From NCBI GenBank assembly GCA_964384105.1, contig CAYLJV010000001.1, forward strand, positions 586,594 to 650,593: a stretch of DNA of 64,000 bases, written 5' to 3'. This document shows, piece by piece, positions 408-26,270 of the stretch. Each line of letters opens with the position of its first letter. The stretch's first letter is position 1. The notes under the pieces were generated by a model that saw only the letters and a list, made by a program, of their open reading frames with translations, had not been told where the DNA came from and made no database searches. Source of the stretch: Candidatus Hadarchaeota archaeon (lineage in GTDB: Archaea; Hadarchaeota; Hadarchaeia; Hadarchaeales; JAGGTB01). Position numbers and translations under genes: made by a program.

Positions 408-635
408 TTACATTACTATGTTTGTGGTAGTCTTTTTTACTCCGTCCGTTCCCCTAATTTTTTCGACGACTTCGTCTCTGAGTGTAGATATGTTTTCGGC
501 TTCGGCATGAACTATAATATCGTATGGTCCTGTGAGCATGTCTGTATCCTTCACGGACTTCAGTTTTCTAAGACTTTCGACGACTTCTCGCATTTTACCA
601 ACCTCGGTATTTATTAAAATATAGGCTCTAACCAA
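408..635 (-). CDS. Stand-alone Lrp/AsnC C-terminal (RAM) ligand-binding domain protein
   Basis: 75 aa. The 'AYILINTEVGK...V..L.......D..MLTGPYDIIVHAEAEN...L...V..KI....GV' pattern is typical of the AsnC-type RAM domain. It is a paralog of the ORF at 9518..9754. Confidence 0.6.
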   Translation of the reverse strand: MVRAYILINTEVGKMREVVESLRKLKSVKDTDMLTGPYDIIVHAEAENISTLRDEVVEKIRGTDGVKKTTTNIVM

Positions 636-809
636 TTGATACCCTCCACTTAATATTCGACAATCAACTCCTTATATTTTTGTAGTATTCCAATCTGTTT
701 TCTTAGTTAGTATTCTTCGAGTTTTGATATTTTTTCTTGAAATTGCCGTGAATTTAGTTTCGGCTATGAATAGAAATAGGATCTAAACTAGAAAATTACA
801 TTTACTCTT

Positions 810-1157
810 ATGAGAATAAACGAGTTGAAGTGGTGTAGCTTTGTGATCTGCGAGATGTGTAGTGGAAAGGTCCCAGAAGGTGCAAACTATTGTCCGAGTT
901 GTGGTGCCCGAGTAGACCTAGTAAGAAAAGAAAAAATTTTGGTCTCTGCAGACGATCTGGTGAGCGAGGTTAAAGAGTTAATACACGAGGGAAACGTTAC
1001 GAGGATCGTGATACGAGATGAAGGAGGAAAGGTACTTTTAGACATGCCTGTTACCGTCGGAGTCTTAGGTTTCATGCTAGCTCCTTGGCTCGCAGCGGTA
1101 GGGGCGGTAGCCGCATTGGCTACTAAATGCACTATAGTGGTAGAGAGACTGGAATGA
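810..1157 (+). CDS. Zinc-ribbon / DUF4342-like protein
   Basis: N-terminal CxxC...CPSC zinc ribbon. The C-terminal 'VTRIVIRDEGGKVLLDMPVTVGVLGFMLAPWLAAVGAVAALATKCTIVVER' matches my memory of the DUF4342 signature. Confidence 0.5.
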   Translation: MRINELKWCSFVICEMCSGKVPEGANYCPSCGARVDLVRKEKILVSADDLVSEVKELIHEGNVTRIVIRDEGGKVLLDMPVTVGVLGFMLAPWLAAVGAVAALATKCTIVVERLE

Positions 1158-1237
1158 CGTCTGTTGGGGGAGAAATATCACGTTATCTAACTGGGTTGGT
1201 CTCTGCTTTTCTCTGATTCTCACGATAAGATGGAGTT

Positions 1238-1480
1238 TTGTTTCATTATATCGTTAGGATTCTCTTTTTCACAGAGAAGTCTACCGCAGTATGGGCAGTA
1301 TTCCTGGGGCTCATCACAGTCTATTTCCCGTACTATTTTACCGCATTGGCATCTGTACTTCTTTCTAATTGGTATTTCCTGTTTATAAGGCAAAGAAACC
1401 CGCCTCCGAGACCTGCTTATTTCTATCTAGCCGGCATCCTGTTAAAAGGCTTTCCGGTTCTTACCATTCGGCTTATTTGA
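1238..1480 (+). CDS. Hypothetical small hydrophobic protein, possibly spurious
   Basis: 80-aa low-complexity hydrophobic ORF in an otherwise ORF-poor 500-bp gap. There is no recognisable motif and no obvious RBS. Confidence 0.15.
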   Translation: MFHYIVRILFFTEKSTAVWAVFLGLITVYFPYYFTALASVLLSNWYFLFIRQRNPPPRPAYFYLAGILLKGFPVLTIRLI

Positions 1481-1664
1481 ATTCGAGGTAGAGTTTTACT
1501 ACATAGATCTCTTTCTTATGTTTTTTATTTGAATGAATTGAATTAATCAAAAAAGAGTGTGACTGGGGCTTACTAATAATAGGTCTCTCAAGTTTTGAAC
1601 TGCTTATAAGATTGCATTAGAGCTCTCTTCACATGAGAATTTCGTAAAGAGAATTTTAGAGGAG

Positions 1665-2549
1665 GTGAAATTTGTGGAGTATAGTCCTTATCCTAAAGGG
1701 AAAGGAAAAGTAAAATGGGTTTCTACAGATTGGCTCGAAAAGAATCTAGAAGATAAAAATTTAATGGTTATGGACATTCAACCTGATATACACGATTATA
1801 TAACAGAACATATCCCAGAATCAGTATATTTTAACCAGCGTTTGCTTCGTGTGCCTATGAATGGAAGGCCCGGTGTTTACGTTCCTGAAAAGGTGATCGA
1901 ATCACTCTTTAATAGAATTGGTCTCGTGGCTGATACACCAGTTGTTGTTTATACAGGTGTGGGTGATTTCAGGGGGTGGGGCGATGGTTTGGAACAGACT
2001 ATGATGGCATATTCATTAGCCAGATTTGGACATGACAATATTTACGTTTTGGACGGTGGTCTCGATAAATGGAAAAATGAAGATAAAGAACTTACCAAAA
2101 AATTTCCGCAAATAAAAAAATCCGATTTTGATGTCGATGTACGCGAGAATTACAAGGCAGATATGAAAGAAGTTAAGGAAACAAAAGATGATGACGATGT
2201 AATCCTGCTGGATGCTAGGCCACCTGAGATGTATGAGCAACAGTCGATATGGCCAAAGCCTGGTCACATACCTGGAGCTGTGAATCTTCCTTGGAAGAGT
2301 CTTATGTCAGAAGATAATCCTAAGCTTCTGAAACCGGAGAATGAGCTAAAAGATATCCTCGATGAAAAAGAAGTAACAAAGGATAAGAAAATTATTTGTT
2401 CTTGTGGAACTGGAAGAGAAGCCACCAATGAGTTTATTTTACTCAGGTGGTATTTTGATTTTCAGGAAGTTAAGAACTACGAGGGTTCATTTACTGAGTG
2501 GGCTGCTTATCCCGAGAATCCGGTAGTTACTGGAAAGGAACCGTATTAG
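1665..2549 (+). CDS. Rhodanese-domain sulfurtransferase (thiosulfate/3-mercaptopyruvate sulfurtransferase-like, two rhodanese domains)
   Basis: 294 aa. It has the tandem rhodanese architecture and an active-site Cys loop 'CSCGTGREA' near the C-terminus. The start is GTG, immediately preceded by AGAGGAGG. Confidence 0.8.
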   Translation: MKFVEYSPYPKGKGKVKWVSTDWLEKNLEDKNLMVMDIQPDIHDYITEHIPESVYFNQRLLRVPMNGRPGVYVPEKVIESLFNRIGLVADTPVVVYTGVGDFRGWGDGLEQTMMAYSLARFGHDNIYVLDGGLDKWKNEDKELTKKFPQIKKSDFDVDVRENYKADMKEVKETKDDDDVILLDARPPEMYEQQSIWPKPGHIPGAVNLPWKSLMSEDNPKLLKPENELKDILDEKEVTKDKKIICSCGTGREATNEFILLRWYFDFQEVKNYEGSFTEWAAYPENPVVTGKEPY

Positions 2550-2590
2550 ATTGGTTAAAACTTTCAGACCTTTTCTTTTTTTATTTTTAA
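2550..2590 (+). terminator. Oligo-T tract (archaeal-type terminator candidate) after the rhodanese gene
   Basis: The sequence 'ccttttctttttttatttttaa' lies directly downstream of the stop. Archaeal termination commonly uses T-runs. Confidence 0.3.
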
Positions 2591-2631
2591 TAGATCGTAT
2601 GAGTTAAGTAGATTAATGAGAAGGTGAAAAT

Positions 2632-3267
2632 TTGGTAACAAAAATTTTGGTTACTTTCTACTCTTCTTACGGTCATATATACAAGCTTGCTCAGTCGGTG
2701 AAAGAGGGTGTCAATAAAGTAGAGGATACGAGGGTTAAAATGAGACGGATACCCGAGCTTCAAGAAGCTAAAAAGAGGTTGAGTGGTAATGAGGCTTATC
2801 AGAAGGCCCAGAAGGAACAGGCCGAAATACCCGAAGTATCCCTAGACGACCTCAGGGGGGCTGATGGTGTATGTTGGGGAACTCCAACTAGATATGGCAA
2901 TATGGCATCTCAGGTGAAACAATTCCTTGATTCTACTGGTGAGTTATGGCAGGAGGGCGCCCTTGAAGATAAGCCTGCTGGGATATTTACTTCCACGGCT
3001 ACTATTCACGGAGGACAGGAAACTACTATAATATCGTCTCTTATACCACTGATGCATTTAGGGATGGTAATAGTCGGAACACCCTACGGCCAGAATCCTC
3101 AGATAAGGACAATTGAGGCGATAGGTGGTTCTCCTTATGGACCCTCTACGATAGTAGGTCTCGATGGGAGTAGACAGCCTGTCGAAAAAGAATTGGAAAC
3201 AGCACGCAACTTAGGCACTCGAGTTGCAAAGGTAGCTAAAAACCTAAAAAAGATGCGAGAAAGTTAA
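2632..3267 (+). CDS. wrbA: NAD(P)H:quinone oxidoreductase, WrbA/flavodoxin-like
   Basis: 211 aa. The N-terminus 'ILVTFYSSYGHIYKLAQSVKEG' and the overall length match the WrbA type IV NQO family. The start is TTG, preceded by GAAGGTGAAAA. Confidence 0.75.
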   Translation: MVTKILVTFYSSYGHIYKLAQSVKEGVNKVEDTRVKMRRIPELQEAKKRLSGNEAYQKAQKEQAEIPEVSLDDLRGADGVCWGTPTRYGNMASQVKQFLDSTGELWQEGALEDKPAGIFTSTATIHGGQETTIISSLIPLMHLGMVIVGTPYGQNPQIRTIEAIGGSPYGPSTIVGLDGSRQPVEKELETARNLGTRVAKVAKNLKKMRES

Positions 3268-3327
3268 TTTATCTGTTTTTATGTTCTTATTTTAGAAATT
3301 AAGGACTTAGGACATAAATTTTAATTT

Positions 3328-3594
3328 TTAGAGTTTTGAACAAACACTTTCCATAAATTTCAAGGCTTTTATCATTTCTTTTCCTTTTTTTGTGACCCGA
3401 TAGCTTTCATCCCCCTTGTCGTTCTTACTTTCGTATTTTTCAATGTAACCATCTTCAATGAGAACGGAGAGGTATTTTTCTGCCATGTACCAATCGAGGT
3501 TGGCAAATCTGATAATTTGGGTTTTTTTGCAGTCTCTTTTTTCGTTAACAGTTTCAAAAATGTCTAACAGGATTTCGCAAGTGCTTCTAGTCAT
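3328..3594 (-). CDS. Small winged-helix DNA-binding protein (HTH_45-like)
   Basis: 88 aa. 'ILLDI...........I...ANL.W......L..L...G.IE' resembles archaeal wHTH (PF14947-like) proteins. It is a paralog of the ORF at 37124..37387. Confidence 0.55.
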   Translation of the reverse strand: MTRSTCEILLDIFETVNEKRDCKKTQIIRFANLDWYMAEKYLSVLIEDGYIEKYESKNDKGDESYRVTKKGKEMIKALKFMESVCSKL

Positions 3595-3602
3595 TTTTCT
3601 TG

Positions 3603-3634
3603 AATGTAGGCAAACTACATAGATTTCCTACATT
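3603..3634. promoter_or_regulatory. Perfect 8-bp inverted repeat AATGTAGG-N16-CCTACATT in a divergent promoter region
   Basis: It sits 9 nt upstream of the wHTH gene start (3594, minus strand) and about 160 nt upstream of the ATP-cone/sHSP gene. AT-rich TATA-like sequence follows at about 3636-3648. Confidence 0.4.
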
Positions 3635-3792
3635 TAGTATTATTAAGAAGTATCAAATATAAGAATTCAAGCGATCGGAGCTTATTTCGTCTAAAAGAAA
3701 AATTTCGGCCTTAATTGAGAAACAGTAACGATTACTAATCGCTAATCTATTGTTATTGGTTCGAATTAAATGAGAATTGAGGAGGTGAAAAA

Positions 3793-4320
3793 ATGGTTAT
3801 TAATGTAATTAAGAGGGATGGTGAGGAAGAACCTTTTGAGAAGAATAAGATAGTTGATTCTATAGTTAATGCAGGTGCGCCAAAGAAAGTTGCAAAAGAG
3901 ATAGCATCGGAAGTTGAGGATTCGGTTGGTGAGCTCGTATCTACTGAAGAAATAAGAAATATGGTGTTGGCTAGGCTTAAGAAGAGACATAAAAAGTCGG
4001 TTGAAGAGTGGATAAATTACGAAACGGAAGAAAAAGCTAGGGCAAACGTATGTCCTTTGGCTGATATTTATCATGACGGGGAAAAGTATACCTTCAGAAT
4101 AGATCTTCCTGGTGTTTCAAAGGATGAAATAGATTTCAAGATGACAGAAAATGCTTTTTGTCTTACTGCGCCGAAGAAGGCTACTAAGTATTGCGGTTGC
4201 TGGACCTTGCATCACAAGGTTGATATTGAGAAGGCCAAGGCTAAGTTCGAGGATGGAGAATTAACTGTTACAGTGCCTTTGGTTAAGTCCCTTGAAGGAA
4301 AGAAGATCGAGATCGAATAA
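3793..4320 (+). CDS. ATP-cone domain fused to small heat-shock protein (Hsp20/alpha-crystallin domain)
   Basis: 175 aa. Residues 1-80 (MVINVIKRDGEEEPFEKNKIVDSIVNAG...EEIRNMVLARL) match the ATP-cone (NrdR/RNR N-terminal) pattern. Residues about 95-175 (ADIYHDGEKYTFRIDLPGVSKDEIDFKMTENAFCLTAP...AKAKFEDGELTVTVP) match the alpha-crystallin domain. There is a strong SD, GAGGAGGTGAAAAA, before the ATG. Confidence 0.7.
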   Translation: MVINVIKRDGEEEPFEKNKIVDSIVNAGAPKKVAKEIASEVEDSVGELVSTEEIRNMVLARLKKRHKKSVEEWINYETEEKARANVCPLADIYHDGEKYTFRIDLPGVSKDEIDFKMTENAFCLTAPKKATKYCGCWTLHHKVDIEKAKAKFEDGELTVTVPLVKSLEGKKIEIE

Positions 4321-5998: not shown

Positions 5999-7006
5999 TT
6001 ATTTCAACCCTTCACTTATGAGGTGAAATTTTAACCCGTATTCGAGGCCTTCTAAGTATGCGGCGATGTCCACCGATCTGACTTTAGGAGCAATTTCCTT
6101 TATTTCTTGGTATTTCTTTTCCCATTCCTCTAATAGATGGTTTCTGACTCCTGAACTTTCTATTTTATCGATATCTTTTTCTTTGATCTCTTCATGCAGG
6201 CTTTCGGGAGAGATAGTTCCATTAATGACAGCGTGTCCAAATATGCCGGAGCTATAATCTCTTTCTTTAAATTCTCTTTTCCAGGTGGTTAACCAGTTTC
6301 CGATCCTGGCCATGTATTGCGATCTCCAGACTATCTCTCGGAGGAGTGGTAAGTCTTGGACTTCGAAATCCGGAGATGACATTATATCAATATCGGTTTG
6401 AGGAAATAGAACCATGTTATGTCCTCCGTATATTTTGGATTCGGTAAGATTTAGCAGGAATGGGTTATTATTTACTAATATTGAGTGATAAAAGGAGTTA
6501 AAAACCTGTTTCATATCATAACGGAATATATTTTTGAATTCTCTAAATCTAGGTAATTTTTTTATCTTTCGTTCTATTTTATCCCATAATTTGGTAGTAA
6601 ACTCTATTTCCTTTTTTTCTAGCGCTTTTTTTGTGCCGATTCTTTTTTTCGGGGTTCCTAGCTGGAATCCTATTCCGCTTTCGAACAGTTCTTCTACTTT
6701 ATAGAGGTCAGCCAAATCGTCGAAAATCGAGACAAAAAGAACCAACATGGTTTTTAGTTCGCCTAGTTCCTGAGTATATTCATCGGGTACTACCGAAAGT
6801 ACGATCCCAGGGTTTCTTTCCGTAGTAAATGTATATACCCATTTCCAGAGGAATCGTTTTCTGTCACCACATTTATCCTCGTATTCGGCTATCAGATTTT
6901 CTAATTCTCCGGGAAGTTTTCTCTCCTTTATTTTATTAACTAGTTCATCTGCCCGTTTGGACTTGGCGAACCCAATTGTTTCTTCTATTGCTCTGCTTTC
7001 TATCAT
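5999..7006 (-). CDS. Class I terpene synthase-like protein (DDxxD + NSE/DTE-like motifs)
   Basis: 335 aa. 'FDDLAD' lies at residues 95-100. 'NWLTTWKRE' lies at residues 237-245 and fits N(D)xx(S/T)xxxE at positions 1, 5 and 9. The roughly 141-aa spacing and the total length match bacterial class I terpene cyclases. There is no second DDxxD, so it is not an isoprenyl diphosphate synthase. Confidence 0.5.
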   Translation of the reverse strand: MIESRAIEETIGFAKSKRADELVNKIKERKLPGELENLIAEYEDKCGDRKRFLWKWVYTFTTERNPGIVLSVVPDEYTQELGELKTMLVLFVSIFDDLADLYKVEELFESGIGFQLGTPKKRIGTKKALEKKEIEFTTKLWDKIERKIKKLPRFREFKNIFRYDMKQVFNSFYHSILVNNNPFLLNLTESKIYGGHNMVLFPQTDIDIMSSPDFEVQDLPLLREIVWRSQYMARIGNWLTTWKREFKERDYSSGIFGHAVINGTISPESLHEEIKEKDIDKIESSGVRNHLLEEWEKKYQEIKEIAPKVRSVDIAAYLEGLEYGLKFHLISEGLK

Positions 7007-7490: not shown

Positions 7491-8873
7491 TTGAATTTGA
7501 TTGGTATTATGACCGAAAAATATGATTTTATCGTTTTTGGAGGCGGTACTGGGAATAAAGTTGCTTCTTATGCTTCAAAAAGAGGTAATAAGGTAGCTCT
7601 GATCGAGCCGGGTCCTCTCGGTGGCACTTGTATAAATCGGGGATGTAATCCTTCTAAAATGCTTATTCATCATGCAGATATTCTCGATACAATCTATAAT
7701 ACAAAAAAATTTCATATTGACGCTACTGTGAATAATGTCGATTTCGGCTCGATAACTGAGGAAATAAGTGAAACATTGGGGGAGGTTGCGAGACGAATAG
7801 GGGTCCGAAAGAAAGAGGATCCAAATCTGGACCTCTACAAAGAGGAAGGTCGTTTTACTTCTGATTTTGACGTTAGAGTTGGTAGAGAGGTTATATCCGG
7901 TGATAAGGTGATTATCGCTGCGGGAAGCAGACCATTCATCCCTCCTTCGATTAATGGATTAGATAAAATCGGTTATATTACTAGTTCTGAGGCGATGTTT
8001 CTGAATGAAAGACCAGAGGAGCTAATCATCCTGGGTGGTGGATACATCGCGGCCGAGCTGGGTTATTTCTTTGGAAGAATGGGGTCTAATGTTACCATTG
8101 TTCAGAGAAGTGATCATCTTTTGTCTAGAGAAGATCGGGAGATAGCGAAGGTTTTTACGAAGATATTCTCTGACCGGTACAGTGTTTTAACGGGGAGTTC
8201 CGTTGTAGGGGCGAGGGAGATGAAAGATGGATTTTCGATTAAAATCGTGAATCGCGCAGGAAATGAAGACATTATTGAGGGTGATGAGGTACTGGTGGCC
8301 CTGGGAAGGCGGCCTAATACTGATTTGTTGGGCCTTGAAAATACAGGAATTGAAACCGATCAGAAAGGATTTATCAAAACGGACAGTCGCTTGGAGACTA
8401 CTGTGAACAATGTTTGGGCCTTGGGTGATATTGCAGGTAATTTCATGTTTAAACATTCGGCTGACTATGAAGCTAAAGTGGTTATTGATAACGCTGTAGA
8501 AGGTAGAAATAGGGTGGCTAATTACAGTGGTGTTCCTCATGCTATCTTTGCTAACCCCCAAATAGGTGCCGTTGGTTCTACCGAACAGGAGCTTAAGGAA
8601 TCTGAAACTGATTATATCAAGGGTTACGCTAAATTTCGGGATATTGCTATGTCCAGAGCACAGAAGTTTGAGCACGGTTTCGTGAAAGTGTTGGTCAGTC
8701 CAGAAAATGGCGAGATTCTTGGATGTCATATCTTGGGACATAAGGCCTCGGTTTTGATTCACGAGATCAGTCTTGCGATAAGGAATGATCTAACTTTTGA
8801 AGAAGTTGCAGATTCGATCCATGTTCATCCTACTTTGAATAAAGTTATAGAAAAGGCCTTTGAGAACTTCTAA
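7491..8873 (+). CDS. FAD-dependent pyridine nucleotide-disulfide oxidoreductase (Lpd/mercuric-reductase-like, class I)
   Basis: 460 aa. It carries 'DFIVFGGGTGN' (FAD-binding), the redox-active disulfide 'GGTCINRGCNPSK' and a C-terminal dimerisation-domain pattern including 'HPT'. Confidence 0.8.
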   Translation: MNLIGIMTEKYDFIVFGGGTGNKVASYASKRGNKVALIEPGPLGGTCINRGCNPSKMLIHHADILDTIYNTKKFHIDATVNNVDFGSITEEISETLGEVARRIGVRKKEDPNLDLYKEEGRFTSDFDVRVGREVISGDKVIIAAGSRPFIPPSINGLDKIGYITSSEAMFLNERPEELIILGGGYIAAELGYFFGRMGSNVTIVQRSDHLLSREDREIAKVFTKIFSDRYSVLTGSSVVGAREMKDGFSIKIVNRAGNEDIIEGDEVLVALGRRPNTDLLGLENTGIETDQKGFIKTDSRLETTVNNVWALGDIAGNFMFKHSADYEAKVVIDNAVEGRNRVANYSGVPHAIFANPQIGAVGSTEQELKESETDYIKGYAKFRDIAMSRAQKFEHGFVKVLVSPENGEILGCHILGHKASVLIHEISLAIRNDLTFEEVADSIHVHPTLNKVIEKAFENF

Positions 8874-9448
8874 TATTTTTCAAGATACCTGATGAATCGG
8901 TCTATCGTCTTTTTTAGACTTTTAAAACCTTCGTTGTCTTTTATTACCCCTTCTTTTGAATCCTTGCTCCAGAATGTTGCACCCAGATTTGCTCCAAATG
9001 ACCCTCCACTGACGGGAATTATTCCATTCATGATGTAGAAGGCATGTATCTGTGTTAGTGCAGTTTCTTGCCCACCTATTCTATCACCACCAACGGCTAT
9101 TCCCATTCCAATTTTCCCTTCAAGTATCCTCTGATCTTTTGCTAGAAGAGCCCTCGTTCTATCCATTACGGCTTTGAGCTTGGCAGATATTCCATTGTTG
9201 TATACGGGAGTTGCGAGTACCAAACCCTTCGATTCTTCGAGAGCAGTAAGTATCGCATTCATCCCGTCGTTGAATGTGCATTCCTCATGTTCTAGACAAT
9301 AGTCACAATGTATGCAGAAGTTTATTTTTTCTTCTCTGAGATTTATTGTAGTCACGGGATGGTTTCGTTTTTCAATCATTTCCCGGGTCTTATCGATTAC
9401 ATATTTAGTAGCTTCTTCTCTTGGGCTACTGTCTATGCATAAGATCAT
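8870..9448 (-). CDS. Iron-sulfur flavoprotein (ISF) / NADPH-dependent FMN reductase family
   Basis: 192 aa. Flavodoxin-like fold with the compact cysteine motif 'CIHCDYCLEHEEC' (Cx2Cx2Cx5C) that is characteristic of archaeal ISF. Its 3' end overlaps the convergent gene by 4 nt. Confidence 0.75.
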   Translation of the reverse strand: MILCIDSSPREEATKYVIDKTREMIEKRNHPVTTINLREEKINFCIHCDYCLEHEECTFNDGMNAILTALEESKGLVLATPVYNNGISAKLKAVMDRTRALLAKDQRILEGKIGMGIAVGGDRIGGQETALTQIHAFYIMNGIIPVSGGSFGANLGATFWSKDSKEGVIKDNEGFKSLKKTIDRFIRYLEKY

Positions 9449-9517
9449 GTGTTTACTGATTTGAATTTCATAACTAAAATACTCGCTGCCTATAACGGGT
9501 ATTTGAAAATTCCTAGC

Positions 9518-9754
9518 TTATTCAATAATAACGCTTGTGTTGGTATCGGTGACTCCTTCAACTTTGCCTATTTCCTCTATTACCACGTTCATTAGTGTGG
9601 ACATATCACTGGCTTCCGCCATTACAATTAAGTCAAAAGGTCCCGTAACAATGTGAATGTTTTTTACTCCTTCGATTTCTTCAATGCTTTCTAGTACATT
9701 TCTTACTTTTCCTACACCGGTTGTGACTAATACATATGCTTCAACCATTTTCAT
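9518..9754 (-). CDS. Stand-alone Lrp/AsnC C-terminal (RAM) domain protein
   Basis: 78 aa. 'VEAYVLVTTGVGK...VTGPFDLIVMAEASDMSTL...V' is a paralog of 408..635. Confidence 0.6.
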   Translation of the reverse strand: MKMVEAYVLVTTGVGKVRNVLESIEEIEGVKNIHIVTGPFDLIVMAEASDMSTLMNVVIEEIGKVEGVTDTNTSVIIE

Positions 9755-18058: not shown

Positions 18059-18685
18059 GTGTTTACAGATTTTAATATGATAAAAATATGTAAAGTCGCT
18101 GTTATAACATTCTTGATTCTATCAGTGTCCATGACTCTTTTGTGGATTCACAGTTCTAACTTCGAGAACCCTCCTAATTATGAAGCCACGGCGGAGGTCC
18201 TTTGGATTTCGGACGGGGATACGGTTGGAGTTAGGATCTTAGAGATGGAAGAGTCATTTGCAACGGTAGATCCGGGGGAAGACATCGTCAGATTTGCTGG
18301 AATGGATACAGAGGAAATCCACAGAGAAGATGCGGTTTCTGAACATCCAGATGTTAAAGGACTTACCCAAGAAGAGTACGAAGAGACCGAATATTATGCT
18401 CGTGCTCTGAGATCCAAAAGAATAGTAGAGTCTCTTGTTCCGAAAGGTACGAGAGTGTATCTGGATATCGATGAAGGGTTAAAAGGAGGAAACTGCAGGG
18501 GCTATTTTGGAAGGTTGATCGCAGTTGTCTATACAAAGTATGAGAATAGATGGATAAATGTCAACGCTAGAGTATTGGCTCAGGAATATTCCATCTCAAA
18601 CGATAAGGACTATGGATTAATGACAGATTATCCTTCAGAATTCGACCCAAACGACTGGCTTTCAGAGGACTACCCCTATGTTTGA
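18059..18685 (+). CDS. Secreted or membrane-anchored staphylococcal-nuclease (SNase/thermonuclease)-like protein
   Basis: 208 aa. It has an N-terminal TM/signal. 'WISDGDTVGVRI' and 'VRFAGMDTEE' resemble the SNase Ca-binding and catalytic region, and 'YFGRLIAVVY' resembles the conserved SNase beta-strand. Confidence 0.65.
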   Translation: MFTDFNMIKICKVAVITFLILSVSMTLLWIHSSNFENPPNYEATAEVLWISDGDTVGVRILEMEESFATVDPGEDIVRFAGMDTEEIHREDAVSEHPDVKGLTQEEYEETEYYARALRSKRIVESLVPKGTRVYLDIDEGLKGGNCRGYFGRLIAVVYTKYENRWINVNARVLAQEYSISNDKDYGLMTDYPSEFDPNDWLSEDYPYV

Positions 18686-18778
18686 CATCGGTTAGCTGGA
18701 ACTTTAGTATGTATTTAGTTTTTCTGTTGGGGTACTTTTTGACTTGGTTTTATTGGATTTTTTTAACTGCTGGACTTT

Positions 18779-18796
18779 GTGAACTGGGGTGTTAAC
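18779..18796. repeat. Repeat R1: GTGAACTGGGGTGTTAAC
   Basis: One of four 18-bp GT(G/T)AAC-N-GGGGT-GTT(A/C)AC elements. Confidence 0.6.
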
Positions 18797-18840
18797 TTTT
18801 GTTTCATTTTTTTCTCTTTTTAAAAATAGTTTTCCACCGA

Positions 18841-18858
18841 GTGAACAGGGGTGTTAAC
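18841..18858. repeat. Repeat R2: GTGAACAGGGGTGTTAAC
   Basis: It lies 62 bp downstream of R1 in the same orientation. Confidence 0.6.
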
Positions 18859-18909
18859 ATTAGGAGCAAATTCGATGGTCTCGGTGAGTTTATAAGTCGG
18901 CGGGGACGA

Positions 18910-19143
18910 ATGAGGATTTTATATATACTCTTAGAGGAGCTGGAAACCCAGTCTGGGGTTGCTAGGAGATTAAAAATTACAAAAAATGCGGTTAACGGGT
19001 GGATAAAAGAGAAAAACAGGCATCCTAGCAATGAAAATATTTCAAAAATGTTAAAAATATTGAATGACAAAAATGAGAAGAAATTTAAGGAAATATTATT
19101 CAAAGAATTGCAAACTTTCCAAAAATTAATATTCGAATTTTGA
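18910..19143 (+). CDS. Small helix-turn-helix protein (77 aa)
   Basis: The internal ATG at 18910 is in frame with ORF 18799..19143. Upstream of it the frame translates across repeat R2, so that part is probably non-coding. 'SGVARRLKITKNAVNGWIKEK' is HTH-like. Confidence 0.4.
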   Translation: MRILYILLEELETQSGVARRLKITKNAVNGWIKEKNRHPSNENISKMLKILNDKNEKKFKEILFKELQTFQKLIFEF

Positions 19144-19156
19144 GGTTAAATCAAAA

Positions 19157-19174
19157 GTTAACCGGGGTGTTAAC
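19157..19174. repeat. Repeat R3: GTTAACCGGGGTGTTAAC
   Basis: It lies 14 nt after the HTH ORF stop. Confidence 0.6.
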
Positions 19175-19219
19175 ATTAATCCATTTCGTGTATCCTGCTT
19201 ACTAAATATCAACTCGATA

Positions 19220-19237
19220 GTTAACTGGGGTGTTCAC
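19220..19237. repeat. Repeat R4: GTTAACTGGGGTGTTCAC
   Basis: It lies 63 bp downstream of R3. Its half-sites mirror those of R1. Confidence 0.6.
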
Positions 19238-19272
19238 ACCTCCATGAACGCCAGCTAATGTAGGAGTAGCAA

Positions 19273-20109
19273 TTAAATGAGGGCTCCTGTGAGAAACGCG
19301 ATAAGTCCGAGTCCCATCGCAATCTTGTACAGTAGGGACGCTTTACTCGCAGACTCTTTCCTCTGATTTTTCCCTATTTTGATTATTCCCCATACGAATA
19401 CTACCACCGATGCTATTACTATCAAAAGATAATATTTTTCGAATAATCCCAGTTGATAAGGCAGGGGTGTCATAAGAATTGCTAGAACTGTGAATATTAT
19501 AGCGAGAATGGCAGCCTTTCTCTTTCCAAATTGTAGAGGAAATGATTCGGATCCTGATTTTTTATCCCCCCGAACATCTTCAATGTCTTTGATTAGCTCT
19601 CTCCCAGCTGTTGAAAAGGCAGCCATTGCGGCGAGAATTCCCACGGTTTCTAAACTGCCAGCTGCTAGCCCCCCAAATAGAAAAGTTGATCCAACAAGGT
19701 AGCTTACAGCAATGTTTCCAAAAAGCCCTTTTCGCTTTAAACTAGTTGCGTAGTAGGCTAGGAGCCCAGAATTGACAACGGCTAATAGTAGGCACGAAAC
19801 TTTCCTTATAAATATCGAGGAGATTATTCCAAAAACAAAGAGCAGTATGCTTACAATGAGTGCTCCTGATGGACTTATCTTACCTGATGGAATTGGCCTA
19901 TCTGGGTTGTTTATGGCATCTAGTTTTCTATCGGCGTAATCGTTTATCGCATTGCCCGCACCGGTTATCAGACCCGCTGCGATAAGAGCAAAGGTTATTC
20001 TCGGTGGAGGTATTCCACCGGCCGAGATTATCGCACCGATCAATACAGCAATAGCTGCAAATACACAGTTATGTGGCCTAATTAGGTTGAAAACAGCCTT
20101 TAATTTCAT
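19273..20109 (-). CDS. UbiA-family prenyltransferase, digeranylgeranylglyceryl phosphate (DGGGP) synthase-like
   Basis: 278 aa with about 8 TM segments. 'NDYADRKLDAINNPDRPIPSG' is the UbiA Asp-rich motif. The size and motifs are typical of archaeal DGGGP synthase. Confidence 0.75.
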   Translation of the reverse strand: MKLKAVFNLIRPHNCVFAAIAVLIGAIISAGGIPPPRITFALIAAGLITGAGNAINDYADRKLDAINNPDRPIPSGKISPSGALIVSILLFVFGIISSIFIRKVSCLLLAVVNSGLLAYYATSLKRKGLFGNIAVSYLVGSTFLFGGLAAGSLETVGILAAMAAFSTAGRELIKDIEDVRGDKKSGSESFPLQFGKRKAAILAIIFTVLAILMTPLPYQLGLFEKYYLLIVIASVVVFVWGIIKIGKNQRKESASKASLLYKIAMGLGLIAFLTGALI

Positions 20110-23178: not shown

Positions 23179-23997
23179 GTGGATGATCGTAAAAACTCGG
23201 CTTTGAAGAAAGTTTCCATAATAATTATTATCCTAGTGGTCATTTTTGGGCTTTCTTGGTATTTTGGCCTATGGTGGGTTTTTCCGAGATCAGAGAATAT
23301 TCCGAATGAGGAGAACTCACTTTTGGACAATTTTGAAAATCGGTCCAGTCTTAGTGACGATACGGAAAATTTAAATTTGGGGGAAAATTCGATACTTTTC
23401 AAGTACGAGGCAGAGTTCACGTACCTCGGCTCCGAGGAGAATAAGCCTCTTCAAAAGTACGGTATTCTTTTTCCGTGTCCTACGGTTGACAACGAACCCG
23501 TTTGGCCAGAGCCAAACATCTCGAGTGAAAATTTAAAATGGCAGTTATGGGGCAGAACGAGCGAGGGAAACTTGGTTCTCGAAGTCGATGACGATAATAC
23601 AATTAGACCAGTCGGTGACAGAAAGTTAAACGGATTTCCCAATTATGATAAAATGGCTGGGAGACCCTTTCTGGGGCCAATTTATTATTCCTGGTTGAAT
23701 ACCACTTGGAAGATTAATATCCAGAATGATTGGGATAATTTGTATCCCAAAGAAACAATTCTAGTTGAAGGAAACTTTTCTGTAAGTATCGAGAATTCGG
23801 AAAAAGTAACTCTAAGAGAGCATTATGGTAGCGTATTTGGAGCGCAATCCTGGATTAACTCTTTTGGCCCTGTTGATACATCAATTAGTGTATCTTTGTT
23901 GAAATGGGAAAATGGGAAATACGAGAAATCAGATGAATATTCTAGTTCGAAAAACGATTCGGGGAAAGGAGACTTTGTAAGACTGTATCCGACTTAG
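23179..23997 (+). CDS. Membrane-anchored extracellular hypothetical protein
   Basis: 272 aa. It has an N-terminal TM (VSIIIIILVVIFGLSWYFGLWWVF), and the rest is rich in Asn/Ser/Trp with many N-x-S/T sequons. Confidence 0.5.
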   Translation: MDDRKNSALKKVSIIIIILVVIFGLSWYFGLWWVFPRSENIPNEENSLLDNFENRSSLSDDTENLNLGENSILFKYEAEFTYLGSEENKPLQKYGILFPCPTVDNEPVWPEPNISSENLKWQLWGRTSEGNLVLEVDDDNTIRPVGDRKLNGFPNYDKMAGRPFLGPIYYSWLNTTWKINIQNDWDNLYPKETILVEGNFSVSIENSEKVTLREHYGSVFGAQSWINSFGPVDTSISVSLLKWENGKYEKSDEYSSSKNDSGKGDFVRLYPT

Positions 23998-25392
23998 TTA
24001 TGGCCAAGAATATCTTTTGGTTAAAGAAAAATTAGCGGTAGCAGTTGAATCCGAATTTGAATCATCAGTTCGAGACTTTTTTTCAGATTCGAAATAACCG
24101 CTTTTTTCTGCCATCACACTGAACGTATGAGTCTGACCCGGCCATCTTTCGTGAGCGTAAACATAGGATCCATCCGACCTGCTTACACTAATTCCACCAG
24201 CTCCACCTTGCCCTGTTTTTTCTCCGGAGAAAGAAACACCGTCGACTGTCATTAGAGGTTCATATATTCCAGAACTTGTTTCAGAGTCTTTGACGTAACC
24301 ACCCACGCCTAGTAATTTTTTATAAACTGATTCACTGTCGTTTTCTTCGTTGGGTTTTACCTCACTGTCCCACTCGTTTATTACTTCATTCTCCTCTGGT
24401 GGCTTTTCTTTAGTTTCGAAGGATATTTCGTAGAATTTATTCTCTATTTTGGATCCATCTGATGCGGTTATTTCAATCGTTGAGTTAGCTTCAAGGAGGT
24501 CGAAAGGGGCATAAATGGTTACCTCGGTATTCACCTCGGAGGAGACACTAACCTTATCGTTTTCTATTTCCAGTTCTATTCGTTCGTCTTTTGCTTCCGT
24601 ATCGATATTGACGGTTCCTTCGTAGCCGTTTTCCCCTCTGATCGTTAAGGGTATCTTTAGGGAGGACCAGTTTTCGACCTCGTATTCCGTTATTCCATAA
24701 AGTGTATTGTGGTAAGCGGTGTATTCCTCAGTTACATAAACTGGGATTCTTTTCACCCCATCTTTGTAGAGAAAGTCGTAATAGTGGGGAACCCAGATGC
24801 TATAAGAATCAAAATAGTTTGGGTGTACTATGTGTACGTTCCAAAGTCCAAACCCTTGAAAGGCGCTCCACCCATAGTCTTTTCCTGCATCGGAAAATTC
24901 TGAGGTATCTTGGAACGAGTTCGGTTCTACTGTGACATTTGGCCAACTATTGCCCCAAAAGAAGTCTCTCCAAAATCCATCATCCCTGTTTCTTTCGAGA
25001 TGGTAGTACATGTAGGGATCTATGCTTTCCAAGTTCATGTTTGTGTAAGGCGTTATTTCTCCGCCAACTGTGTAGATCGGTTCGGTCTTGTAGTGGTCCA
25101 AAACTTCTCTGGTAGCGGTGAAAGGTTCTACTACTAGATGTTCATAAGTATTTTCTATCCAACCTCTAAGCAATATTCCTGAGTTTTCATCAATTGGTGT
25201 GAACTCGTCAGTTTCAGTGATAGGAGTTTCCAATTCTAAGACAAAGTCTTTGGATCCGAAGTTTTCAATTGATTTTTCGTATGTTACGTAATCTCGTTCG
25301 TACTTATCAGATTCGGCATGAGAAGCGGTGAAGGAAGCTAAAGAAAGAATCAACAATATCAATAAAAAAATCGAGAGGTTCGAATTTTTCAT
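23998..25392 (-). CDS. Secreted hypothetical protein (signal peptide, Tyr/Trp-rich, many N-glycosylation sequons)
   Basis: 464 aa. It has the signal peptide MKNSNLSIFLLILLILSLASFTASHA. Its stop abuts the stop of the convergent 23179..23997 gene. Confidence 0.55.
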   Translation of the reverse strand: MKNSNLSIFLLILLILSLASFTASHAESDKYERDYVTYEKSIENFGSKDFVLELETPITETDEFTPIDENSGILLRGWIENTYEHLVVEPFTATREVLDHYKTEPIYTVGGEITPYTNMNLESIDPYMYYHLERNRDDGFWRDFFWGNSWPNVTVEPNSFQDTSEFSDAGKDYGWSAFQGFGLWNVHIVHPNYFDSYSIWVPHYYDFLYKDGVKRIPVYVTEEYTAYHNTLYGITEYEVENWSSLKIPLTIRGENGYEGTVNIDTEAKDERIELEIENDKVSVSSEVNTEVTIYAPFDLLEANSTIEITASDGSKIENKFYEISFETKEKPPEENEVINEWDSEVKPNEENDSESVYKKLLGVGGYVKDSETSSGIYEPLMTVDGVSFSGEKTGQGGAGGISVSRSDGSYVYAHERWPGQTHTFSVMAEKSGYFESEKKSRTDDSNSDSTATANFSLTKRYSWP

Positions 25393-25490: not shown

Positions 25491-26270
25491 TTATAGAGAC
25501 TTTTGAGGTTTTTGTTCGAATTCAATCGGTTTTGCCATTAATATTATGCTTCTTTCGCAGGCTTGTCGGAAAATTTCTTCTTGGAAAATTTTCTGTTCAT
25601 AGTATTCGTGGATACTGGGAAGGATATCCCAGACTACATATTTGAATTCCAATGTTTCGGGTTCGCCGTTGGTCTCGTTCATTTTTTCCATAGACTTTTC
25701 AGCAGTATTGAGGTTTTCCCTGCAAGACCTTTCGATTTCATTTACAGTTTCTTCGAAATCCAATCCATTTTCTAATTGTTTTAGGAATTTCTTCCCAGAT
25801 CTGAAGGAAATCTCTCTGTAGAGTCCCAGCAGCTCTCTTATATTGAGCCAGTTAGAATCGACCTCAAATCTTTGAATTATCTTGGTTCCTATTCTGTCCG
25901 AAATTCTTTCTAATAAATTGTCATCGAAAGTTAATATGGGGAGCTGGAGATGCGCTGCGAGAAGTAGACCCCTCAAGTCAGTTAATGCAACTTTGCGATT
26001 AGTTTCGAACATTATCTGTCGGCCTATTTCATCGTAGAGTTCGGGTAGATGTATTGGATATACGCTTCTTCGTCTGACCATCTGTTTTAGAAGGCTGTAT
26101 TTAACTGTCTGATTTCTTACCTGAATCAGTTTAGACCGGGATAACCAAGAATATGTAGAGCTTGGGATATACAATCCGGAGCACTGAAAGAATCTTTGAG
26201 CACCGTTCAATGATCTCCGATTTGTTAGAACGCTAGTGTCACAAACCGCACCGAAGTCTTTCGTGGGCAT
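25491..26270 (-). CDS. PIN-domain protein with about 125-aa C-terminal extension
   Basis: 259 aa. 'AVCDTSVL' holds the first PIN Asp, and 'TDLRGLLLAAHLQLPILTFDDN' holds the third and fourth acidic residues. The C-terminal half is acidic and helical and of unknown family. Confidence 0.55.
   Translation of the reverse strand: MPTKDFGAVCDTSVLTNRRSLNGAQRFFQCSGLYIPSSTYSWLSRSKLIQVRNQTVKYSLLKQMVRRRSVYPIHLPELYDEIGRQIMFETNRKVALTDLRGLLLAAHLQLPILTFDDNLLERISDRIGTKIIQRFEVDSNWLNIRELLGLYREISFRSGKKFLKQLENGLDFEETVNEIERSCRENLNTAEKSMEKMNETNGEPETLEFKYVVWDILPSIHEYYEQKIFQEEIFRQACERSIILMAKPIEFEQKPQKSL

Follow-up and report, generated by a model that had tools for sequence, protein, structure and literature searches.

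Direct repeats around a small helix-turn-helix gene in Hadarchaeota and MSBL1 archaea, probable operators of an autoregulated cassette

Within a 64,000-nucleotide stretch of DNA from a Candidatus Hadarchaeota archaeon (assembly GCA_964384105.1, contig CAYLJV010000001.1, positions 586,594 to 650,593; hereafter "the window," numbered from its first letter), four copies of an 18-bp repeat surround a single small gene for a helix-turn-helix (HTH) protein. Judging from comparison of the sequences, we consider it probable that the repeats are the cognate operators of this XRE/Cro-like protein and that the whole forms an autoregulated cassette of ~460 bp, with an archaeal promoter made up of a B recognition element (BRE) and a TATA box. 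By the same comparison, the cassette is conserved in MSBL1/Hadarchaeota and occupies a different chromosomal position in each genome examined. A preliminary description of this DNA had offered operator sites for the HTH protein as one possible reading; our results support it, since the motif is found only at this HTH family, the sites co-vary with the protein, and one of them (R2) occupies the gap from the TATA box to the start of the gene. From these patterns we infer both binding of the protein to the sites and repression by it.

Results

Four Direct Repeats in the Window

The repeat (consensus GTKAACNGGGGTGTTMAC) occurs in four copies on the + strand, R1 to R4, starting at 18779, 18841, 19157 and 19220, with start-to-start distances of 62, 316 and 63 bp. 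These are the sole matches on either strand of the 64 kb at two or fewer mismatches (0.02 were expected, and four or more appeared in 0/100 shuffles), and the 12-nt core AACNGGGGTGTT, searched with one mismatch, returned the same four sites alone. The four 18-mers, their coordinates, their direct orientation and the 62–63 bp distance within each pair were thereby reproduced as first described. No tRNA, Rfam family or tandem array (Tandem Repeats Finder) was found in the window. The elements of the cassette are:

18779–18796, + strand: R1, upstream site (GTGAACTGGGGTGTTAAC), its end 21 nt 5′ of the TATA-like element
18810–18828, + strand: BRE/TATA-like promoter element (TTTTCTCTTTTTAAAAATA), a conserved block in an alignment of eight loci, with a predicted promoter role drawn from the archaeal consensus
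18841–18858, + strand: R2 (GTGAACAGGGGTGTTAAC), site between the TATA box and the start codon, spanning the predicted transcription start
18859–19143, + strand: HTH gene of 94 codons and a stop, probably starting with ATT at 18859; internal ATG at 18910 (77-aa form)
19157–19174, + strand: R3 (GTTAACCGGGGTGTTAAC), 13 nt past the HTH stop codon
19220–19237, + strand: R4 (GTTAACTGGGGTGTTCAC), second downstream site, 63 bp past R3

The preliminary description had also remarked that the outer half-sites of R1 and R4 are reverse complements of each other. They are, and we give this little weight: GTGAAC is the left half of R2 as well, and of R1/R2 equivalents in other genomes, for which reason a reading of R1 and R4 as attL/attR-like hybrids was rejected. 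A further sequence 57 bp 5′ of R1 (18722–18739, TTCTGTTGGGGTACTTTT) might be the relic of a fifth site, with GGGGT alone kept; it is indistinguishable from chance.

Distribution of the Motif and Layout of the Cassette

Nine independent loci were compared: the window (identical to L120), L124, L125, L126 (= L107 and L127), L128, L129, L135 (MSBL1 SCGC-AAA259A05), L097 (contig CAZEBR010000012.1 of the Hadarchaeota metagenome-assembled genome (MAG) GCA_964510375.1) and L136–L138, the last of these being distant (35% identity, 59% GC). Throughout ~140 kb of flanks from the family loci, the motif is confined to the surroundings of the family HTH gene, and three related loci without the gene (L121–L123) do not have it; copies of the 18-mer thus go with the HTH gene family, the association that the preliminary description had proposed to look for.

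In the main subfamily the layout is constant: one to three upstream sites, a BRE/TATA-like promoter, a site abutting the start codon, the HTH gene of ~94 aa, and a site after the stop codon. The upstream sites lie 56–130 bp before the R2 equivalent in L125, L126, L128, L129, L135 and L097. Every locus, the distant L136 included, has a site that overlaps the stop codon or lies 0–20 nt past it. An equivalent of R4 is found in L125 (at 62 bp) and L097 (at 64 bp), is degenerate in L124, and is absent from L126, L128, L129 and L135. The bracketing sites are oriented like the HTH gene, and when loci are compared, homology at the nucleotide level sets in at the promoter or upstream site and breaks off exactly where R3/R4 ends. 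The spacings in the window are neat in helical terms (62/316/63, or ~6/30/6 turns); across the loci no such phasing was found (Rayleigh p = 0.37 at 10.5 bp), and we dropped the idea. One cassette, that of L124 (9880–10460), looks decayed: its TATA block is deleted, R1 is gone, as is the canonical start before the N-terminal peptide, R4 is degenerate, and the stop codon of the HTH gene has been lost, so that the reading frame continues through R3.

Wider searches for the DNA motif yielded little else. A scan of GTDB genomes for the 18-mer gave at least 119 mostly single matches, almost all bacterial and at about chance frequency; among the matches listed, only L097 and L107 (both Hadarchaeota) are real. 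A pattern of R2 followed by R3 had five matches in Joint Genome Institute (JGI) metagenomes, all of them internal repeats of unrelated protein-coding genes, and a paired-site pattern had one match in IMG/VR, an unrelated, GC-rich bacterial phage-like element as in L080. This element (L080 2780–2960 = L139 1590–1800; Bacteroidota-labelled MAG contig and IMG/VR UViG_3300009707_000107, respectively; ~60% GC) contains clustered GTTAACTGG(G)GTG repeats, two of them matching the 18-mer perfectly, inside the gene for a 450-aa protein with an HNH motif; the repeats resemble in-gene replication iterons and appear to be unrelated to the archaeal cassette, a case of a convergent motif. Two archaeal matches, L083 and L085, were rejected as family members. 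The latter, from an Archaeoglobaceae MAG, has an intergenic cluster of GTGAAC/GTTCAC palindromes at 880–980 (GGTGTTCACCTGGGTGAACAGGGGTGTTCAC ... GTGTTCACTGAGTGAACAC) with no HTH gene of the family in its vicinity; this is probably another set of operators.

Half-Sites and the Recognition Helix

Alignment of 32 sites from the family loci gave the consensus tGTTAAC(A)GGGGTGTTAACa, in which A4, A5, G8–G11, T14 and T15 are invariant and C6, T12, G13 and C18 nearly so. The inner part, AAC-N-GGGG-T-GTT, is thus invariant or nearly invariant over all 32 sites, the central GGGG without any variation, while changes in the outer arms are symmetric, to GATAAC..GTTATC in L129 and, in part, L128 and to GTCAAG..CTTGAC in L136. 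Changes on both sides of a site were counted in nine cells, against 2.9 ± 1.5 in column shuffles (nine was reached in 0/500), a control that ignores relatedness, with few independent events among the co-varying sites. In the true register 85% of the arm cells are complementary, compared with 25–61% in slid registers.

The arm variant parallels residue 2 of the predicted recognition helix (helix 42–50 in an AlphaFold2 model of the HTH protein). An N at this residue (TKNAV/SRNAV) goes with GTTAAC half-sites, T (TRTAV/ARTAV) with GATAAC..GTTATC in L128 and L129, A (SRAAV) with GTTAAC/GTAAAC, and Q (TRQAI) with GTCAAG..CTTGAC in L136. As aligned, the half-sites shift in step with the divergence of the HTH protein.

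Promoter and Start of the Gene

In the alignment of the eight main-subfamily loci, a TTTCTCYTTWAAAA block stands ~12 nt upstream of the R2 equivalent (18810–18828 in the window); the R2 core AACAGGGGTGTT is identical at the R2 position in all eight, and seven of the eight combine the TATA-like block with a start codon 0–1 nt after R2. Transcription in archaea usually begins ~26 nt past the TATA-box centre, and by this distance the start is predicted at ~18847–18849, inside R2. We infer that R2 sits where archaeal repressors usually act. Its GGGGTG, 5 nt before the start codon, is also Shine-Dalgarno-like and could pair with the 3′ end of 16S rRNA.

The open reading frame (ORF) 18910..19143 of the preliminary description is present as listed, and its assignment as HTH agrees with a Pfam HTH_3 score of 23.4 bits against a cut-off of 23. 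The gene very probably begins further upstream. The codon directly after R2 is ATG in L128, L129, L135 and L097, TTG in L125 and L126, and ATT in L124 and the window (18859), and in every locus the next 16 codons, up to the ATG at 18910, specify xxxFDGLSEFISRRGR. Over codons 2–17, loci differ pairwise at rates of 0.21/0.15/0.54 for the three codon positions, and synonymous codon pairs outnumber non-synonymous ones by 208 to 92, so that the 17 codons before the ATG at 18910 are very probably coding and under purifying selection at the protein level. Distant members do not keep the Met at 18910, which falls within a predicted helix; this and the conservation of the N-terminal codons as protein argue for a protein of ~94 aa rather than 77. 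The preliminary description had set the 5′ extension of the frame aside as probably non-coding, which holds for the part that runs across R2 and further upstream (promoter and site) and fails for the 17 codons between R2 and 18910. ATT here would represent either a near-cognate start, rare for an archaeon, or a sign of reduced expression.

The HTH Protein and Its Relatives

The 94-aa form scores 22.7 bits with PF01381 (HTH_3), just below the cut-off that the 77-aa form passes; the match is borderline, with similar scores from many other HTH models. Within the family, 9/12 members match PF01381 at E ≤ 0.1 (best 1.4e-7), and several homologues carry a precomputed PF01381 annotation. NCBIfam, PHROGs and PADLOC gave sub-threshold matches only, to transposase, excisionase and CasR-type HTH models, and a sequence search of the PDB gave no significant match. 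The AlphaFold2 model (predicted local distance difference test score 90.1) has six helices. Its Foldseek neighbors in the PDB are XRE regulators, controller (C) proteins, HipB, SinR and Cro, with a putative XRE regulator, 2o38, ranked first; TM-scores are 0.44–0.62 and probabilities reach 0.98, but all at E ≥ 0.18.

In an exhaustive phmmer search of 1.84 billion representatives (50% clustering), 20 relatives passed E ≤ 1e-3, and for seven the E-value was under 1e-10; named MSBL1 proteins (94 aa, 67% identity) were recovered by a profile search, and a word-indexed search returned the HTH protein itself as its sole match. Identity between loci is 56–67% for the HTH protein and 63–70% for UbiA, the product of the gene that follows the cassette in the window. 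No relatives were found by protein-pattern scans of JGI metagenomes and IMG/VR, or by tblastn against phage and plasmid collections. A 133-aa HTH gene 5′ of the L126 cassette was considered as a paralogue and rejected, having generic HTH similarity only.

Genomic Contexts

No partner gene recurs beside the cassette among the loci, whose surroundings are as follows:

Window: SNase-like gene / cassette / UbiA gene, convergent neighbors
L097: cas7-cas3-cas4 / cassette (− strand) / cas1
L124: NUDIX / cassette / SufBD
L125: apparent 5′ half of a tRNA gene (GGGCCCGTAGCTCAGCTGGATAGAGCG, 886–913 of this locus) at the contig end, ~130 bp past R4
L126: HTH_3 gene / cassette / aminotransferase
L128: DUF4443 protein / cassette / aIF5B-like GTPase
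L135: HEPN/MNT and MazE/PIN pairs / cassette / Glucodextran_B-domain protein
L136: acylphosphatase / cassette / Lhr helicase

The locus L097 (1–8000) is of a type I-B-like CRISPR-Cas (clustered regularly interspaced short palindromic repeats and associated genes) system, in the order 629-aa ORF without a Pfam match, cas7, split cas5-like ORFs, cas3 and cas4 (6421–6933); cas1 begins at 7670, and the cassette lies between cas4 and cas1. Two extra sites (7442 and 7508) in the divergent intergenic region are oriented toward cas1, which suggests either regulation of the adaptation genes or an insertion that split the operon. The cas8-cas3 part of this locus looks much more AT-rich than cas4/cas1. 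In L135, the pairs directly upstream of the cassette are HEPN/nucleotidyltransferase and MazE/PIN genes, and the locus also has a gene for a PEP-utilising enzyme with an intein (Intein_splicing and LAGLIDADG); these features of L135 lie at 541–4104 and 7836–9665.

A Lineage-Specific Segment

In the window, the cassette lies within an intergenic segment between two convergent housekeeping genes:

18059–18685, + strand: SNase-like gene, 208 aa, conserved next to UbiA in MSBL1 genomes
18686–19272, no strand assigned: 587-bp intergenic segment between the stops of the SNase-like and UbiA genes, holding the whole cassette
19273–20109, − strand: UbiA/DGGGP-synthase-like prenyltransferase gene, 3′ neighbor of the segment

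The wider order is CDC48-like ATPase, 100-aa ORF, 208-aa SNase-like gene (+), HTH gene (+), UbiA (−), NurA and HerA. Among named proteins, the best relatives of UbiA come from single-cell genomes of MSBL1 (70% and 64% identity) and from MAGs of Hadarchaeota, which places the window in an MSBL1/Hadarchaeota archaeon. The 208-aa protein has no Pfam match at E ≤ 0.01; its DGDT motif is, in our own reading, reminiscent of staphylococcal-nuclease-like proteins. In MSBL1 SCGC-AAA382F02 (L121) the order HerA-NurA-UbiA-208 aa-small ORF-CDC48 is kept with the UbiA and 208-aa stops 0 bp apart, and in SCGC-AAA259E19 (L123) 32 bp separate the two genes. The 208-aa proteins of these two genomes are orthologous to that of the window and aligned to their C-termini (52% and 46% identity). 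With the orthologous pairs 0 and 32 bp apart, the 587 bp represent either an insertion here or a loss in the relatives; comparison for presence or absence, as the preliminary description had recommended, thus finds the segment missing at the syntenic site in two relatives. In GCA_964510375.1 another gene follows UbiA (L122), and the cassette is on a different contig (L097).

The segment has a GC content of 0.348, compared with 0.392 for the whole window, and that of the HTH gene is the lowest among its neighbors. An 8-bp inverted repeat (TTAGCTGG/CCAGCTAA, 18693–18700 and 19252–19259) lies at the segment ends; it was rejected as a terminal inverted repeat, being at chance level (120/2000 shuffles had an equal one), and it does not occur in the other loci. 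Elsewhere in the window, ORFs of 272, 464, 335 and 259 aa (regions 23179–25392, 5999–7006 and 25491–26270) had no Pfam match at the thresholds used.

Discussion

How the Cassette May Work

The archaea of Hadarchaeota/MSBL1 are almost entirely uncultured, and to our knowledge no binding site has been described for any of their transcription factors. The arrangement described here would offer a protein-operator pair, predicted from sequence alone, whose natural variants (N/T/Q with GTTAAC/GATAAC/GTCAAG) are testable in vitro and could serve archaeal genetics as an orthogonal repressor-operator part.

We picture a dimer of the protein bound to two dyad-related half-sites (xxxAAC ... GTTAAC) that flank the asymmetric GGGG. 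Occupancy of R2, over the predicted transcription start, would block recruitment of RNA polymerase and so bring about negative autoregulation; R1, 5′ of the BRE/TATA element, and R3/R4, behind the stop codon, would be auxiliary sites, possibly bound cooperatively. It is plausible that the bracketing sites also form a loop, or a roadblock or insulator, around the gene. A transcription factor that acts on a neighboring gene would fit as well, since L097 has two extra sites facing the divergent cas1. The site after the stop codon and the shifting position of the cassette pose a modest question: does the cassette loop or insulate, and does it move?

Several points weigh against an autoregulated operator cassette. 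Its support is wholly comparative; the co-variation counts rest on related sequences with few independent events; and a simple symmetric dimer leaves the asymmetry of the invariant central GGGG unexplained. There is no obvious purpose for a factor that, in the sequence compared, has detectable sites around its own gene alone, and a universal site after the stop codon is not needed for autoregulation of a promoter. In the distant L136 no site covers the transcription start, its two sites being placed ahead of the TATA box and on the stop codon, so that the trait conserved across the whole family is the bracketing of the gene and not the occlusion of its start. Finally, the copy in the window, with its ATT start, may be weakly translated, truncated from the internal ATG, or at the beginning of decay.

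Alternative Explanations

Bracketing on both sides is also what would be seen if the repeats were the ends or recombination sites of a tiny mobile cassette, acted on in trans by a recombinase or transposase, with the HTH protein as its site-recognition or directionality subunit. We regard this as unlikely, and it is compatible with the sites being operators as well. The absence of the 587-bp segment from the syntenic site in two relatives is in line with mobility, as are a context that differs from genome to genome (inside a cas operon in L097, beside toxin-antitoxin genes in L135) and a genome, GCA_964510375.1, that has the UbiA locus without the module and the module elsewhere; but the HTH protein has diverged (56–67%) much as UbiA has (63–70%), so that vertical descent with rearrangement and loss also fits. 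Homology between loci starts at the outermost upstream site and stops exactly at R3/R4, which would suit the ends of a mobile unit but is expected anyway of the outermost functional elements. The direct orientation of all bracketing sites, the weak transposase-type or excisionase-type HTH matches in several members and the low GC of the HTH gene relative to its neighbors point the same way, against which must be set that no recombinase or transposase lies within or beside any module, that no target-site duplication was seen, that the sole terminal inverted repeat (8 bp) is at chance in the shuffles, that there is no second copy and no solo site in the 64 kb or the other loci, and that IMG/VR and the phage and plasmid collections hold no relatives. 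With the inverted repeat at chance and no evident duplication, we rejected an insertion sequence (IS) or a miniature inverted-repeat transposable element (MITE); no transposase was found, and the 64 kb hold one copy. The preliminary description had allowed for recombination or attachment sites bounding a tiny cassette; a cassette, missing from two relatives and variable in context, is borne out, and the recombination sites found no support. A more specific and still less likely idea is a minimal archaeal mobile element made up of a promoter and a gene, whose ends are the sites of its own HTH protein, which is moved by a host or helper recombinase and would be self-insulated by its bound ends; if true, it could land between or inside operons (cas4/cas1) at little cost.

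Symmetric arm changes are equally expected of a conserved stem, and the asymmetric GGGG and constant strand orientation would suit a loop that is read on one strand; the sites might then be RNA or single-stranded DNA hairpins (stem GUUAAC/GUUAAC, loop NGGGGU), serving as untranslated-region elements or as strand-specific ends of the IS200/IS605 or REP kind. R3 alone folds into exactly such a hairpin, but the minimum-energy folds of R1, R2 and R4 differ, folding z-scores are +0.15 to −1.35, 14.6% of arm cells lack pairing, and the stem is broken in many R1/R2 copies (GTGAAC..GTTAAC, ACAAAC..GTTAAC). R1, moreover, is upstream of the promoter and would be outside the transcript, and neither a HUH/Y1 transposase nor an Rfam match was found; we consider hairpins very unlikely, and an IS200/IS605 or REP/RAYT element in particular was rejected on the lack of any HUH-family match and on these z-scores. 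Hardly better are the prospects of another host factor that binds the sites, with the HTH gene as a passenger of a replication origin, a partition or centromere-like site, or a chromatin boundary. Archaeal origin recognition box (ORB) elements likewise combine a dyad and a G-rich string, iterons and centromere-like sites typically take the form of clustered direct repeats, and a similar motif forms in-gene iterons in the unrelated bacterial phage-like contig. An archaeal origin was nevertheless rejected: the sites are all direct, a coding gene and its promoter rather than an AT-rich unwinding element lie between them, there is no orc1/cdc6 among the neighbors and no Orc1/Cdc6 domain in 20 other window ORFs tested, cumulative GC skew has no turn at 19 kb, and the segment is absent at the syntenic place in relatives and inside a cas operon elsewhere. 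Against any other host factor stands the co-variation of the sites with the locally encoded protein. That the repeats are a CRISPR-like array, degenerate or in miniature, made of two pairs of repeats and "spacers" of ~45 bp, is extremely improbable, even though the 62–66 bp period of the paired sites resembles a CRISPR period and one family member lies between cas4 and cas1. The unit is only 18–20 bp with barely similar flanks beyond, the R1–R2 "spacer" is the conserved promoter, the gene also lies between repeats, spacing is irregular (62/316/63 here, 56–130 elsewhere), Tandem Repeats Finder found no array in the window, and the same repeat is kept with the gene across genomes at 56–67% protein identity, in contrast to CRISPR repeats enclosing a single gene. 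The preliminary description was right to say that this is not a CRISPR array.

Comparison with Known Systems

No description of the HTH-operator module was found in the literature, and operators of the enclosed protein, the reading we prefer, invite comparison with several known systems. Alike in plan are the Cro/CI-type (XRE) repressors: small HTH proteins, all-helical as is the AlphaFold2 model here, with 17–18-bp operators of dyad half-sites, several of them at the repressor's own promoter and one over the transcription start; the operators on both sides of the repressor gene, with possible cooperation at a distance, also recall the OL-OR looping of lambda CI. Unlike Cro/CI, the cassette is archaeal, with a BRE/TATA promoter, an asymmetric GGGG core and a single site orientation, and its second sites lie directly behind the stop of a one-gene unit with no phage or other cargo.

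The controller proteins of restriction-modification (R-M) systems (C.Esp1396I, C.BclI), autoregulatory XRE-fold dimers of ~80–100 aa that act on paired palindromic boxes at their own promoter, are among the top-ranked Foldseek matches (TM-score 0.5–0.6, probability up to 0.98, with E > 0.1). In contrast to C-boxes, the cassette sites are 56–130 bp apart rather than contiguous, and there is an extra site past the gene. No R-M genes flank any of the nine loci, and with SNase-like and UbiA neighbors and non-contiguous sites in the window, an R-M controller system was rejected. So was a type II toxin-antitoxin system of the HigA/HipB kind: the unit has no conserved partner ORF, and the neighbors differ at every locus.

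Among archaea, Ss-LrpB of Sulfolobus is an autoregulator with regularly spaced palindromic boxes in its own control region. It resembles the cassette as an archaeal factor with several similar boxes, at whole helical turns, upstream of its own gene, and differs in its Lrp/AsnC rather than XRE-like fold and in having no downstream box, while the phasing of the cassette sites is not conserved. Csa3a-type regulators act on the CRISPR adaptation genes of Sulfolobus type I-A; the L097 member, divergent from cas1 with two sites in the shared intergenic region, is reminiscent of these, as are the faint Csa3/CasR HTH matches, far below threshold, of a few members. The family, in contrast, has no CARF domain, and one of nine loci is cas-associated, the window locus not being that one. 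With IS3 OrfA-like proteins and MITE-like elements it shares a length of ~95 aa, an HTH followed by long C-terminal helices, sub-threshold transposase HTH matches, and a unit of variable genomic position bounded by the presumed sites of the protein; it differs from them in having no transposase ORF, terminal inverted repeats or target duplication, and in being single copy in the sequence at hand.

Taken together, the cassette is conserved, previously undescribed and probably a member of a familiar class, that of small autoregulatory HTH proteins with dyad operators. It is less usual in that a unit of one gene has sites on both sides, in its variable position and, in one instance, in its place inside a cas operon.

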